In this document: piece after piece, positions 1 through 4,705 of the stretch
How the letters are laid out: each line of letters begins with the position of its first letter
Numbering within the stretch: position 1 is the stretch's first letter
IMG/VR virus record: IMGVR_UViG_2529292834_000011
Length of the DNA stretch: 4,705 nt
Strand: one strand, 5' to 3'
Source of the DNA: a virus
Taxonomy: Duplodnaviria > Heunggongvirae > Uroviricota > Caudoviricetes
The notes under the pieces: model-generated
The model's database searches: none
What the model was told of the DNA's origin: nothing
What the model saw: only the letters and a program-made list of their open reading frames with translations
Made by a program: the position numbers and the translations under genes

Positions 1-1
1 T

Positions 2-349
2 GGAATAACCCAGGCTTATTTTGAGTTGGGTATGACGTTCCCAGAACTGTATGACGACAGCCATCCGGAAGCCCTGGCTCGCAATACCCAGAAAATTTTC
101 CGCTGGATAGAGAAAGACACCCCTGATGCAGTTGAAAAAATTCAGGCGTTGTTACCAGCGATCGAAAAGGCAATGCCACCTTTGCTGGTGGCCAGAATGC
201 GCAGCCACAGTTCAGCTTATTTTCGGGAGCTGGTGGAGACGCGGGAGCGACTGGTGAGAGACGCTGATGATTTTGTCGCAGTGGCAATCGCCGGTTTCAA
301 TCAGATGAACCGTGGTGGCCCGGCAGGAAATGCTGTGGCAGTGCATTGA
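2..349 (+). CDS. 3' portion of a prophage early-region protein; N-terminus lies upstream of the window (cII-position gene, possibly YdaT-like)
   Basis: The reading frame is open from position 2 with no stop until TGA at 347-349, so the ATG at 26 is probably internal. It lies directly upstream of the replication-initiator gene, the position cII occupies in lambdoid phages. The family name is recalled, not verified. Confidence 0.6.
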   Translation, partial: GITQAYFELGMTFPELYDDSHPEALARNTQKIFRWIEKDTPDAVEKIQALLPAIEKAMPPLLVARMRSHSSAYFRELVETRERLVRDADDFVAVAIAGFNQMNRGGPAGNAVAVH

Positions 350-420
350 GTGATAATAGCCATATCGAATCACTTCCGGCAACTCGTGAGTAAAAAGATT
401 CGGTATCAGAAGAGGTGAGT

Positions 421-1491
421 ATGGCTAACGCCTGGCTCAGATTATGGCATGACATGCCAAATGACCCTAAGTGGCGAACAATTGCCAGGGTGTCAGGGCA
501 GTCAATTGCAACAGTGATGGCAGTGTATATCCACCTCCTGGTGAGCGCGTCACGAAATGTCACGCGAGGTCACATTGATGTCACGACAGAAGATTTGGCA
601 AGTGCGCTCGACGTGACAGAAGAGGTAATTGATTCAATTTTGCAGACGATGCAGGGGCGGGTACTTGATGGTGATTTAATCACTGGATGGGAAAAACGCC
701 AGGTGCTTAAAGAGGACAACGGCAATATTTCGCAAACCGCAAAATCTCCTGCAGAGCGCAAGAGGGCGCAGCGAGAGAGGGAAAGAAAGCGGGAACAAAA
801 TGGCGATTGTCACGGCGCGTCACGAAATGTCACGCACATGTCACGACGAGTCACGACAGATAAAGATACAGATAAAGATACAGATCAAGAAGATCAAAAC
901 ACTATGGTCCATGGCGTAAAAAACGCCACGAACCAGGCAGGGGATGTTCAGACCGTCAATCTTGGTCAGCCAGCAGGCACGACACCGGAAGCCGATTCAG
1001 CGTATGCGCTGAAAGCCGATTCGGGCGCTGTGCAGCAGGTGATGACCGCAAGGCCGGAGCAATCACACCAACTGCAGCAGCCTGAAGCCGATTCCGCCAT
1101 TCAGCGGGAAGCCGATCGGGTAGTCACGGAAAACACCGGGCAGCCTGTGAGACGAGTGGATTATCCGGATGTGTTCGAACAGGTCTGGCGGGAATACCCG
1201 TTGCGTGCTGGGGCAAACCCGAAGAAATCCGCTTTCAGTGCCTGGAAGGCCAGATTACGCGAGGGGGTGTCACCAGAGGCCATGCTGGATGGCGTGAGGC
1301 GTTACGCAAGATACCTTGCGGCTACCGGGAAAACGGGAACGGAATTTGTTCAGCGAGCGACGACGTTTTTTGGACCGGACCGGAATTTTGAAAACCCCTG
1401 GCTGCTCCCGGTAAGCGGCACGAACAACCAGCGTTGTGTGAATCATATTTCTGAACCGGATACCGAAATTCCACCGGGCTTCAGGGGGTAA
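421..1491 (+). CDS. phage replisome organizer / replication initiator (O-like), with embedded iterons
   Basis: ATG at 421 has a Shine-Dalgarno AAGAGGTG at 410-417 with a 5-nt spacer; the ORF track starts at GTG 415, which is too close to the SD. The N-terminus (ANAWLRLWHDMPNDPKWRTIA...) resembles the phage replisome-organizer N-terminal DNA-binding domain. A low-complexity acidic/polar linker (DKDTDKDTDQEDQ, Q/P/A-rich) is followed by a distinct C-terminal domain (FEQVWREYP...WKARL...YARYL...). Its own coding sequence contains iteron clusters, as in lambda O. Confidence 0.7.
   Translation: MANAWLRLWHDMPNDPKWRTIARVSGQSIATVMAVYIHLLVSASRNVTRGHIDVTTEDLASALDVTEEVIDSILQTMQGRVLDGDLITGWEKRQVLKEDNGNISQTAKSPAERKRAQRERERKREQNGDCHGASRNVTHMSRRVTTDKDTDKDTDQEDQNTMVHGVKNATNQAGDVQTVNLGQPAGTTPEADSAYALKADSGAVQQVMTARPEQSHQLQQPEADSAIQREADRVVTENTGQPVRRVDYPDVFEQVWREYPLRAGANPKKSAFSAWKARLREGVSPEAMLDGVRRYARYLAATGKTGTEFVQRATTFFGPDRNFENPWLLPVSGTNNQRCVNHISEPDTEIPPGFRG
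545..590. repeat. iteron cluster A: four GTCAC(G/A) hexamers at 10-11 bp phasing
   Basis: Hexamers at 549-554, 559-564, 569-574 (GTCACA) and 580-585. The 21-bp block 545-565 is identical to 815-835, and both clusters end in GTCACGACAGA. Confidence 0.65.
805..860. repeat. iteron cluster B: five GTCACG hexamers at 10-11 bp phasing
   Basis: Hexamers at 809-814, 819-824, 829-834, 840-845 and 850-855. Spacing matches one helical turn, and the cluster is followed immediately by an AT/purine-rich tract. Confidence 0.65.
857..900. repeat. AT-rich, purine-biased tract with 12-bp tandem repeat (CAGATAAAGATA x2 plus a degenerate third copy)
   Basis: Positions 857-868 and 869-880 are identical, followed by cagatcaagaagatcaaaac. 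It sits directly 3' of iteron cluster B and encodes the DKDTDKDTDQEDQ linker of the initiator. Confidence 0.6.
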
Positions 1492-1531
1492 GTGTTGATT
1501 TCTGGTCATGAGGTAATTTTCAGGAGGACTT

Positions 1532-1954
1532 GTGGCAAAAGTTTTTACACAAGAAGAGCGGGAAAAAATTAAAGGGCAGGTTGTTGAACTCGTACGCCAG
1601 AGTGGGCGCGAGACGTTACGACAACTGGAAACTAAAACTGGGGCAACAAGATATCTGATGAGCGTTCTGGCCAGAGAGCTGGTTGCCAGTGGCGATGTAT
1701 ACAACTCTGGTTACGGGTTATTCCCGTCTGAACAGGCGCGTAAGGACTGGCAAAATGCCCGTAAAAAGCTCTCAAGGGCAAAGCTGAAGAAACCATCTGC
1801 GGTTGATCCGGACCTTATCTGGTCATTACCTGACGGAGAAATACGTCGCTACGACAGGCGTCAGAACATAATCTGTCGCGAGTGCCGGAAGAGTGAGGTT
1901 ATGCAGCGAGTGCTGGCGTTTTATCAGGGTAATTTTCAGGAGGTGATGGCGTGA
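1532..1954 (+). CDS. hypothetical prophage protein, possible winged-helix DNA-binding fold
   Basis: GTG start at 1532 with SD CAGGAGGA at 1521-1528; 140 aa ending at TGA 1952-1954. No Walker A motif, so it is not a DnaC/P-type helicase loader despite occupying that position. Confidence 0.6.
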   Translation: MAKVFTQEEREKIKGQVVELVRQSGRETLRQLETKTGATRYLMSVLARELVASGDVYNSGYGLFPSEQARKDWQNARKKLSRAKLKKPSAVDPDLIWSLPDGEIRRYDRRQNIICRECRKSEVMQRVLAFYQGNFQEVMA

Positions 1955-2246
1955 GAGTGAGAGTCTATATCGCCGGTCCAATGACCGGGTATAAAAATTT
2001 CAACCGTGAGGCGTTTCACAATGCGGAAGAGGAACTGAAACGGGAAGGGCATACCGTTTTAAATCCGGCTGTGCTTCCGGATGGGCTGACACAGCCGCAC
2101 TACATGGATATTGCATGGCAATGATTCGTTGTGTGGATGCGATTTACATGCTGAAAGGCTGGCAGCGGTCAGCAGGTGCTAAGGCAGAACTGGCGCTGGC
2201 GGAGAAACTGGGGCATGCAGTTATTTTCCAGGAGGAGGTACAGTGA
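1951..2246 (+). pseudogene. DUF4406 / nucleoside 2-deoxyribosyltransferase-like gene, split by an apparent 1-nt frameshift
   Basis: The frame from GTG 1951 encodes MRVRVYIAGPMTGYKNF...HTVLNPAVLPDGL...YMDIAWQ and stops at TGA 2122-2124. A second frame (2115/2121 to TGA 2244-2246) encodes MAMIRCVDAIYMLKGWQRSAGAKAELALAEKLGHAVIF. Together they make one DUF4406-like domain (YIAGP...NP...CDAIYML.GW) if a single base is restored near 2113-2118. SD GGAGGTGA at 1940-1947. Confidence 0.5.
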
Positions 2247-2518
2247 ATATCGACGCAACAATGACGATTGGTACGGCCCTCAATACGGGGCTGGCGCTTC
2301 TTGGTTGGTGCTACATCATGTTCTGCTCATGGCGGTGGCTGTCACTGATGTTACTGAAAGAATGGAATAAACGCTGTAAACAGACGCAGCGGCAGAAGGC
2401 AATGAATGCGTTTTTTGAGACCTTCGATATTGACAGTATAGAACCAGGAGAGCCAGCTCGCGTGATTAGCAGAGGTGACGTTGTAATTCTTGTATACCGG
2501 AGTGAAGAGAAAGCATAA
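2243..2518 (+). CDS. small single-pass membrane protein, function unknown
   Basis: GTG at 2243 overlaps the preceding stop (GTGA), with SD GGAGGAGG at 2231-2238. It has an N-terminal hydrophobic helix (TIGTALNTGLALLGWCYIMFCSW) and a basic, charged C-terminus. Confidence 0.5.
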   Translation: MNIDATMTIGTALNTGLALLGWCYIMFCSWRWLSLMLLKEWNKRCKQTQRQKAMNAFFETFDIDSIEPGEPARVISRGDVVILVYRSEEKA

Positions 2519-2604
2519 TCCAAATCTGAATAATTAAATCCAGCACTGTAAATAAAATTTAATCCTTAACCGGAGGGATTTCTGCACCCTCAGAACATCA
2601 GGAG

Positions 2605-2622
2605 GCCGCCCGAAAGGGCGGT
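2605..2622. other. GC-rich hairpin (7-bp stem with GAAA tetraloop) at the left edge of the AT-rich island, immediately 5' of the next gene's RBS
   Basis: Positions 2605-2611 GCCGCCC pair with 2616-2622 GGGCGGT (one G-U pair), loop GAAA 2612-2615. No U-tract follows on either strand, so it is not a canonical intrinsic terminator. Confidence 0.35.
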
Positions 2623-2632
2623 GGAGATAATA

Positions 2633-2887
2633 ATGGAAATAACTAAAGAACGATTATTGGAAATAGCAAATCTTAGTGAAAGGGCATTAAGTGATGGGAG
2701 GATTATTTCTCCTGATGCTTATGAATCAGTTACAAGTATAGAAATAATAACGATGGCCAGGATGCTTCTTGGTTGCCTCAAAAAAGAATATAAAAAAAAG
2801 GTGGATAGCAATGCTAATATATATGATATTTTGGACAGTTGGGGGGCTTGGGCTGCAGCTGGAAATAGTTCTATCAACTGGCAGTAA
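2633..2887 (+). CDS. hypothetical protein; possibly the N-terminal part of a gene interrupted by an in-frame TAA
   Basis: ATG at 2633 with SD GGAG at 2623-2626 and a 6-nt spacer. AT-rich codon usage. The frame ends at TAA 2885-2887 and continues in the same frame into the next ORF. Confidence 0.45.
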   Translation: MEITKERLLEIANLSERALSDGRIISPDAYESVTSIEIITMARMLLGCLKKEYKKKVDSNANIYDILDSWGAWAAAGNSSINWQ

Positions 2888-3157
2888 GTGGCTGATAAAT
2901 ATAAAGATGTAGTACCTCATGGTAAGAAATTACGCCGTCAGTGTGGCAACGATGAAGGTCGTATGATTGATACCTGCATGTTGAAGCTTAAACAATATAG
3001 AATAGATGACTATGAGTTAATTATCGCTCATTTTGTTATAGGTATATCTTTGCGTACAATAGCACGAAGGTACAAATGTTCAGATGGAACAATAAGAAAG
3101 AATATACAACTTACAATGGGAGTATTGTTAGGATTGTCTTTTTATGTGCAATTATAG
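2888..3157 (+). CDS. helix-turn-helix protein with a sigma-70 region-4-like motif; may be the C-terminal part of the preceding ORF
   Basis: GTG at 2888 immediately follows TAA in the same frame, with no convincing SD. The motif YELIIAHFVIGISLRTIARRYKCSDGTIRKNI matches the sigma-70 region-4 / LuxR-type HTH pattern, followed by a hydrophobic tail. Confidence 0.45.
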   Translation: MADKYKDVVPHGKKLRRQCGNDEGRMIDTCMLKLKQYRIDDYELIIAHFVIGISLRTIARRYKCSDGTIRKNIQLTMGVLLGLSFYVQL

Positions 3158-3162
3158 ATATA

Positions 3163-3642
3163 TCACATGAGCCTTGTTATGTCCTTTAGACGCGACCAGG
3201 TAGTATAAAATTTTTTAAATGTAATAAGCAGGAAAAAAATTCCCACTTGGAGTAATAGTTGGGCATATGTGTGCTCGTCGGCATCTTTTACTAGTGGGAA
3301 TTTAAACTTTAGTGTATCAGGGAAAAATAATAAAATGATAAAAATAATACAAACTGATAGTAACCATCCCATAGTGGAGTGCATTTCTTCGGTCAGTTTT
3401 TTCAAATAACCAGTTTTTCCTATATTTCTAATTAGCGTATTATCTCTAGCTGAAGCAATCAAGGTAAGCGAACCTAAAACAAAGCCAAATAATATCCCAG
3501 AAAATGTAGAAACGGCCGAAGCGATTGGCTGAATTTGTGCAAAATTTAGCTTTGCAGAAAGAGGCCATGCGATGATACAAAAAACAACAGAGGCTAAATT
3601 ATAACCATAACTGTACAAAGTTATCAATTTCCCCTTTTTCAT
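3163..3642 (-). CDS. small integral membrane protein with four predicted transmembrane helices; candidate effector of a two-gene module
   Basis: ATG (revcomp of 3640-3642) is preceded by SD GGAG (3653-3650) with a 7-nt spacer, 15 nt after the upstream gene's TAA. Four hydrophobic segments of about 17-25 aa (approx. residues 16-30, 39-63, 90-107, 126-142). Confidence 0.6.
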   Translation of the reverse strand: MKKGKLITLYSYGYNLASVVFCIIAWPLSAKLNFAQIQPIASAVSTFSGILFGFVLGSLTLIASARDNTLIRNIGKTGYLKKLTEEMHSTMGWLLSVCIIFIILLFFPDTLKFKFPLVKDADEHTYAQLLLQVGIFFLLITFKKFYTTWSRLKDITRLM

Positions 3643-3657
3643 ACCATCGCTCCAAAA

Positions 3658-4407
3658 TTAATCAACTCTTTGATTGGCTACTCCAAAGTATGCCTTCAAT
3701 TCATCATCTTTACTATCTTTTGCAAGAGTTAAGGCGCTCCAAATGCTGCCAACTAATGGATACCTACCTCCAAGTTCAACATCTGTGTAGTAGACTAATT
3801 TGTCTGCTACAAGATCGATAGGATGCTGTACACCGGTCTCAATGTCTTGGGTTTCTAGTTTAAGTTTTTCAACCTCAAAAGTCTCTAGTGTTTCTTTAAA
3901 GGCTCTTTTTAGTTGAGAACCTAGATAGCGAGATTCAGGATCTTCAGAACGACTATCCCCACGTAATGTAAGATTTACTTTGGCAGAATTAGTACCATTT
4001 AGAGTGGCTATCAATGCATTGTTGAAGTTATGTTCAACATCCTCATATAGTTGCACATTCTTTGGCCGAGCGATACCGATTTCTAGAGTTTTGATTCGAA
4101 CTTCATTACGCATCAACCACTTTAAACTACTGGTCTGAATGATGGGATTAACAGTTGTATTTTGTGAACTGTTGGAAAGATATTTACTTAATAACACCCA
4201 GCCATAACAGAGTCTGTTTCGTTGAATTATTAAAACTGAGTCTTGGGTATAAAAATGAAAATAAGCTTTTTCTAATAAGTTTTCATTGATTTCAAGTTTA
4301 ATTTCTCTTTCTTCACCTCCGGCTACAGCAACATGAGGGAGATTATTGGTTCTGTGTTTTCCTATAACTCCCCTGAAACCATAGTCGGTTCTTTCCATGA
4401 AGCGCAT
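3658..4407 (-). CDS. soluble protein of unrecognised family, upstream gene of the two-gene module; 5' end probably truncated or displaced by IS1
   Basis: The open frame runs from the IS1 junction to TAA (revcomp of 3658-3660). The first native ATG (4407-4405) has no usable SD (AGGAAA is 15 nt away), and the frame stays open upstream into the IS1 end. The TTG start at 4446 on the ORF track is IS1-derived. No catalytic motif recognised. Confidence 0.5.
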   Translation of the reverse strand: MRFMERTDYGFRGVIGKHRTNNLPHVAVAGGEEREIKLEINENLLEKAYFHFYTQDSVLIIQRNRLCYGWVLLSKYLSNSSQNTTVNPIIQTSSLKWLMRNEVRIKTLEIGIARPKNVQLYEDVEHNFNNALIATLNGTNSAKVNLTLRGDSRSEDPESRYLGSQLKRAFKETLETFEVEKLKLETQDIETGVQHPIDLVADKLVYYTDVELGGRYPLVGSIWSALTLAKDSKDDELKAYFGVANQRVD

Positions 4408-4432
4408 TTCAACTAGTTTATTTCCTATTTTA

Positions 4433-4455
4433 GGTGATGCTGCCAACTTACTGAT
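4433..4455 (+). repeat. IS1 left terminal inverted repeat (IRL)
   Basis: GGTGATGCTGCCAACTTACTGAT, the characteristic 23-bp IS1 terminal repeat. Confidence 0.9.
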
Positions 4456-4487
4456 TTAGTGTATGATGGTGTTTTTGAGGTGCTCCA

Positions 4488-4705
4488 GTGGCTTCTGTTT
4501 CTATCAGCTGTCCCTCCTGTTCAGCTACTGACGGGGTGGTGCGTAACGGCAAAAGCACTGCCGGACATCAGCGCTATCTCTGCTCTCACTGCCGTAAAAC
4601 ATGGCAACTGCAGTTCACTTACACCGCTTCTCAACCCGGTACGCACCAGAAAATCATTGATATGGCCATGAATGGCGTTGGATGCCGGGCAACTGCCCGC
4701 ATTAT
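4488..4705 (+). CDS. insA: IS1 InsA transposition regulator, 5' partial
   Basis: GTG at 4488 begins (M)[71 protein letters not shown], the InsA zinc-finger N-terminus. The frame runs off the window. The ORF-track entry 4459..4671 is a different, spurious frame. Confidence 0.9.

Follow-up and report, generated by a model that had tools for sequence, protein, structure and literature searches.

A DUF6731 gene and its four-helix membrane partner, cut by IS1 in a lambdoid prophage, are probably a remote pair of the RexAB type

What is the role of two adjacent minus-strand genes that lie between a Q-like antiterminator gene and an insertion sequence in the Caudoviricetes record IMGVR_UViG_2529292834_000011? 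The stretch analysed here, hereafter the window, is 4,705 nucleotides long, and the genes in question are an upstream gene for a soluble protein (A) and a downstream gene for a small membrane protein (B). A preliminary description of this DNA had proposed that they form a phage-exclusion module with the architecture of lambda RexA/RexB. Our analysis suggests that the pair quite probably belongs, as a distant relative, to the RexAB type of abortive-infection or exclusion systems that prophages encode, a reading that draws on the similarity of the folds, the topology of B, the conserved A-then-B operon and the carriage of the pair on prophages and in defence islands. The copy in the window is itself a decaying remnant, with its sensor gene cut by IS1 and a nonsense mutation in the adjoining Q-like gene.

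The window lies within a lambdoid prophage, and its bases 1-4432 are 99.91% identical (four substitutions) to a prophage of the enterotoxigenic Escherichia coli (ETEC) strain 504838 (locus L001). The two open reading frames (ORFs), one of 159 codons and one longer, converge on the plus-strand Q-like gene, and for both we recovered homologs (42 and 29, with identity down to about 40%), from which it follows that both are real genes. The B gene (3163-3642, minus strand, ATG start) is complete, shows no difference from the ETEC copy, and encodes a 159-residue RexB-like four-helix inner-membrane protein, the putative effector. It is preceded by a 15-nucleotide spacer (3643-3657, minus strand) that reads TAA-TTTTGGAGCGATGGT-ATG and supplies a GGAG ribosome-binding site, in agreement with the co-oriented arrangement, the spacing and the Shine-Dalgarno sequence given in the preliminary description. 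The A gene (3658-4432, minus strand), which encodes the putative sensor with a DUF6731/RexA fold, is represented only by its 3' part. The match to the intact locus ends at 4432, with the terminal repeat of IS1, GGTGATGCTGCC, following from 4433 on; the left end of IS1, made up of its terminal inverted repeat and the beginning of insA (4433-4705, plus strand), is defined by this break and by database matches, with the IS1 part of the query having about 77,000 matching places in E. coli genomes, one of them (H20) annotated as 'IS1-like element IS1A family transposase'. The preliminary description had been right about the presence of an insertion sequence and about the reality of the upstream gene, but the IS1 is inserted into the gene pair rather than flanking an AT-rich island, and the start of A does not lie in the window: the ORF at 3658-4446 (minus strand, 262 residues) is counted from an artefactual TTG within IS1.

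The window retains codons 48-304 of A and one base of codon 47; the other two bases of that codon, all of codons 1-46, the Shine-Dalgarno sequence and the promoter region with all upstream DNA are lost. The missing part comprises the first long β-strand and helix of the predicted structure, along with the invariant D9 and F10, and what remains departs from the intact copy at a single residue. Given that A is left with neither start nor promoter, the module in the window is very probably non-functional. Intact copies, in which A has 304 residues, are present in 19 complete E. coli genomes, and the intact proteins of the pair have the accessions WP_000157319.1 and WP_000715488.1; 19 of the 5,426 complete genomes searched hold most of the query sequence and none of the 5,426 contains the IS1 junction. 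Promoter scans gave nothing convincing for the orphan B gene in the window, which might still be transcribed from elsewhere. Lambda RexB shows activities of its own when expressed alone, and for this reason an orphan B is not necessarily inert. A sequence matching the sigma-70 consensus at 11 of 12 positions (TTGATA-18-TATAAT; 3598-3627, minus strand) falls within the first 15 codons of B, and scans upstream of the intact A gene (L001:10074-10300) yielded nothing convincing and no site comparable to it.

The intact A protein matches the Pfam family DUF6731 (PF20505) over residues 1-268 with 47.6 bits (E 2.2e-12; the Pfam gathering threshold is 27 bits), and even the fragment in the window scores 40 bits. 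All 27 close homologs of A match the same family, which has no mention in the literature that we searched, and A belongs to phrog_7651, a family of unknown function. The group is large: an exhaustive profile search recovered 784 cluster representatives at E ≤ 1e-3, with 312 at E ≤ 1e-10, and of 93 diverse relatives 84 match DUF6731. The predicted structure of A has the two-domain, RdgC-like fold of RexA. By analogy with the lambda protein, A in its intact copies is probably a cytoplasmic RexA-fold protein that acts as a DNA-binding dimer. At the level of sequence neither A nor any of the 93 diverse relatives is matched by the RexA models (Pfam PF15969 and PADLOC RexA); none of these relatives hits another informative family, and PADLOC returned nothing consistent for them. 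A itself has no match in PADLOC or NCBIfam and no sequence match to any chain in the PDB, a BLASTP comparison with lambda RexA gave an E-value above 5, and profile alignment with RexA by hhalign was marginal (E 0.015). The broad DUF6731 profile showed a likeness to eIF2-alpha among PDB chains (E about 0.005; profile positions 209-289, the 'PIDLIADR' region), which we judged to be probably spurious.

The partner B matches phrog_8552 (E 1.7e-68). On the Kyte-Doolittle scale it displays four hydrophobic segments, of which three are strong and the fourth is weaker, and its AlphaFold model (mean pLDDT, the predicted local distance difference test, of 79) contains four long helices (3-30, 34-64, 79-105 and 126-158) with a short extra helix in the central loop, in line with the four helices initially ascribed to it. 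Hydropathy and charge distribution predict that both termini are cytoplasmic, as is a basic central loop (66-88) with five lysine and arginine residues. B is in this way predicted to share the plan of a four-helix inner-membrane protein of about 144 residues with cytoplasmic termini and central loop. The central loop and the second helix are the best-conserved part of the B family, and a T-G-Y-L motif, whose TGY is at 77-79 in B, is invariant or nearly so. There is also a faint sequence signal: the PADLOC RexB model matches B with an E-value of 0.0015 and matches 22 of 25 family members, the best at 5e-6, and a RexB hidden Markov model of our own construction scores members of the B family at up to 17.2 bits, compared to a maximum of 7.9 in 500 shuffled sequences and 3.7 for reversed ones; 14 of the 25 members exceed the shuffled maximum. 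In a Foldseek search of the B model against viral models, the fifth match is a 165-residue protein of the mycobacteriophage Sbash (probability 0.98, TM-score 0.56). By sequence B is thus a candidate member of the RexB family, and two results weigh against membership, namely that the Pfam RexB model does not match B and that the hhalign comparison of B with RexB is weak (probability 2%, E 0.02).

The two genes are inherited together. In every one of the eight genome loci that we retrieved from three phyla (Photobacterium, Aeromonas, two Pseudoalteromonas, Endozoicomonas, Marinobacterium, a Saprospiraceae metagenome-assembled genome and Geomonas), A is directly followed by B in the same orientation, and the same order recurs in 11 of 11 distinct viral contigs, with identity of A falling as low as 24%; adjacency is kept in every genomic context looked up. 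The preliminary description had asked whether homologs of the two genes occur as an adjacent pair elsewhere, especially in prophages or defence islands, and had named a lack of conserved adjacency as a ground for refutation; the adjacency is clearly conserved, and the pair is found in prophages and beside genes for Mrr, NERD, SIR2-like and KAP NTPase proteins. Megablast searches with the pair against sequenced phages and tblastn searches against plasmids gave no match.

In several phages the pair stands next to a repressor. Pseudomonas phage AUS531phi has, in order, a divergent Cro-like gene, a CI-family repressor, an A homolog that scores 327 bits against the family profile and a B homolog (40 bits, E 1e-14). 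In L039, a Mu-like phage, A is preceded at a distance of 19 nucleotides by a repressor that has HTH_3 and Peptidase_S24 domains and faces a Ner-like gene, and in L041 and L044 repressor-like genes with helix-turn-helix domains head the gene string that holds the pair. This repressor-side placement in at least four phage contexts is what would be expected if the pair chiefly served the lysis-lysogeny decision of the prophage, with the RexA-fold protein binding DNA or the repressor and biasing the switch towards lytic growth, and lambda RexA is reported to bind DNA non-specifically and to modulate the bistable switch independently of RexB (PMC11077077). We consider this reading improbable as the chief function, though it is compatible with membership in the RexAB type. 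The pair lies a long way from any repressor in E. coli, Klebsiella, Endozoicomonas and several Vibrio species, where tuning of a switch would make little sense; such sites are close to Q and to lysis genes, on mobilisable elements of small size, within defence islands and, in one case, in a bare insertion into a tct operon. In E. coli and Klebsiella it adjoins the Q gene as cargo in antisense orientation. Its neighbors in Endozoicomonas are an Mrr-type nuclease, a NERD protein and a pair of an AAA_15/AAA_21 ATPase with HNH that we take to be Septu-like, and at another locus (L037) it is flanked by SIR2-like and KAP NTPase genes. In V. vulnificus (L046) and V. parahaemolyticus (L047), 7195-15653, it sits on a small element that adjoins a truncated gene of the ChlI/Mg-chelatase type, possibly comM, and on which a serine recombinase and a Mob_Pre relaxase are encoded along with a DprA-like gene; the V. 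parahaemolyticus element has in addition a fused 1050-residue methylase-Eco57I-type protein. In V. europaeus the pair adjoins the integrase of a small prophage, and in V. lentus (L045:8001-9398) A and B alone interrupt a tricarboxylate transporter operon between its tctB and tctA genes, and no recombinase is in the vicinity; this suggests a very small mobile unit or its remnant. Further, the strict co-inheritance of A with its membrane partner points to an effector function at the membrane. Taken together, these contexts are what one would expect to see for an anti-phage module that is mobile.

The neighborhoods close to lysis genes bear on another possibility, that B is a holin-like or lysis-timing protein with A as its regulator, the pair being part of the prophage lysis cassette. 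The Klebsiella pair lies between Q and the holin and lysozyme genes, beside holin and endolysin genes, and that of a Marinobacterium Mu-like prophage is just upstream of a holin on the same strand. We regard a lysis function as very unlikely: in E. coli and Klebsiella the pair is on the strand opposite to Q and the late lysis genes, the E. coli, Klebsiella and Marinobacterium prophages already have holins of their own, B has no match to a holin family in Pfam or PHROGs, many copies of the pair are found outside any prophage, and the soluble partner has the RexA fold. Nor do we give more than slight credence to a toxin-antitoxin addiction module that stabilises mobile elements without sensing phages, with B as toxin and A as its neutraliser: the pair would suit it in being an operon of two genes, one of them for a small membrane protein, that occurs on mobile elements of many kinds, as would the hokD gene near the pair in the intact E. 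coli locus, but the window has A destroyed and B intact, which a cell expressing B could not survive were A an essential antitoxin, and the RexA fold along with the RexB-like signal point to a Rex mechanism. The lysis, addiction and pure switch-regulator readings are thus all ranked low.

If the pair is of the RexAB type, a mechanism can be proposed by analogy with lambda RexAB, the gp30/gp31 pair of Sbash, the Vibrio system Sucellos and the Pseudomonas putida pair RexABpp. A, in its intact copies, would sense a cue made by an infecting phage and then activate the 159-residue B protein in the inner membrane. Activated B may open a channel or pore, leading to depolarisation of the membrane and loss of ATP, such that the infected cell would stop growing or die before the phage cycle is complete. 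This offers a functional hypothesis for DUF6731 and for its unnamed partner family, and flags defence loci that annotation in the style of PADLOC would not fully detect. The intact ETEC and Klebsiella copies could easily be cloned for a direct test in E. coli.

The plus strand of the window carries, in order, an O-like replication gene, a DUF977 gene, a frameshifted DUF4406 gene, a DUF4752 gene and the Q-family antiterminator gene. The last of these, together with the minus-strand pair, makes up an AT-rich block (2550-4432) with a GC content of 0.32-0.41, as against 0.46-0.59 in the rest of the window, which bears out the AT-rich setting first described for the pair. The Q-family gene (2621-3157, plus strand) is a pseudogene in the window: a C-to-T change at 2885 turns a CAA codon into a TAA stop (2885-2887), and the ETEC copy encodes an intact protein of 174 residues. 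As the intact ETEC prophage also has a DUF1133 gene further downstream, the AT-rich Q-like gene is perhaps not the working Q of the prophage but part of the inserted cargo. The DUF4406 gene (1951-2246, plus strand) is broken into two overlapping ORFs (1951-2124 and 2115-2246); since the copy in the ETEC prophage is also annotated as frameshifted, this lesion appears to be older than the IS1 insertion. With a nonsense mutation and a frameshift in the prophage, and with an IS1 junction absent from all 5,426 complete E. coli genomes, the DNA may stem from a lineage rich in IS1 and in pseudogenes, such as Shigella. Towards the other end of the window, an ORF of 358 residues (415-1491) has a weak match to replisome organisers and encloses two clusters of GTCACG motifs spaced by about 10 nucleotides (549-587 and 809-857), which are followed by a perfect tandem of two copies of ACAGATAAAGAT (856-879). 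Judged from their sequence, the clusters and the tandem look like origin iterons inside the O-like replication gene.

How, then, does the pair relate to the systems already known? The archetype, lambda RexA/RexB, is represented by the Pfam families PF15969 and PF15968 and, for RexA, by a structure (PDB 8TWQ); no pairwise or profile-to-sequence similarity of its proteins to A and B was detected, and the Pfam RexA and RexB models leave the pair unmatched. The likeness lies in the build. B has 159 residues and lambda RexB 144, with the same predicted topology; the basic loop of B (66-88) corresponds to that of RexB (68-83), each with five lysine and arginine residues; and the T-G-Y-L motif of the B family has a counterpart in a conserved Y-G-Y-M at the equivalent position of RexB. 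The lambda rexA-rexB spacer is likewise 15 nucleotides long with a GGAG, and the arrangement in AUS531phi is that of lambda cro and cI-rexA-rexB. Placement beside a repressor, as in lambda, is seen in AUS531phi, L039, L041 and L044 and not in the E. coli and Klebsiella prophages, where the pair is next to Q. The RdgC/IML3-CHL4/CENP-N fold may be counted among the closest relations too. Beyond lambda, Rex-like pairs have been described in the mycobacteriophage Sbash (gp30/gp31) and in CarolAnn (gp44/gp43), a Gordonia phage, and Sbash gp31 is a validated RexB-like four-helix effector with an essential central cytoplasmic loop, in which R70A and D73A abolish defence (PMC6426596). Sbash gene 31 encodes 165 residues with R70 and D73 as published, and this is the length of the fold match of B; the central loop, essential in gp31, is also the most conserved part of the B family. 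Similarity in sequence is absent, gp30 is longer (372 residues) and the hosts of the actinophage pairs are Actinobacteria.

Two further systems come close by their descriptions. Sucellos (SclA/SclB) is a defence system of V. cholerae integron cassettes that is also present in prophages; both genes are needed, it acts by abortive infection and SclB is a predicted transmembrane pore (bioRxiv 10.1101/2024.07.02.601686). Later papers report it as a DefenseFinder call, and primer names suggest VCA0367-0368 as its V. cholerae locus tags. The P. putida pair RexABpp (PP_5643/PP_5644) is likewise an experimentally validated Rex-like pair (PMC12894663). Remote RexAB-like pairs outside the Pfam RexA and RexB models have, then, already been validated in the form of Sucellos, RexABpp and the actinophage pairs; the analogy and architecture drawn in the preliminary description were sound, but its term 'undescribed' does not hold for this kind of system. 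The computational features of Sucellos, namely RexAB-like predicted structures, no RexAB Pfam match, two genes and carriage on mobile elements or prophages, all fit our pair, although the comparison with Sucellos and RexABpp is by descriptions only and such shared features do not establish family identity. Sucellos occurs in integron cassettes and is said to be frequent in Salmonella prophages, whereas the four Vibrio loci of the A-B family that we examined are not integron arrays and no Salmonella relative is among the homologs found; this leans slightly against the pair being Sucellos. A more far-reaching proposal, to which we give a little less than even credence, is that DUF6731 and its four-helix partner constitute a large branch of the Rex superfamily that has hitherto escaped annotation (784 clusters at 50% identity, in several phyla), with its own trigger specificity, with an A protein missed by PADLOC v2.0.0, and distinct in sequence from lambda RexAB, Sucellos and RexABpp. 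Were this the case, the pair of a Rex-type sensor and channel would be an ancient and widely shared passenger of the immunity operons of temperate phages rather than a peculiarity of lambda, since its position right behind a repressor gene recurs in lambdoid, Pseudomonas and Mu-like phages. The pair adds to the recent evidence that modules of the RexAB type are far more widespread and more diverse in sequence than the lambda family suggests.
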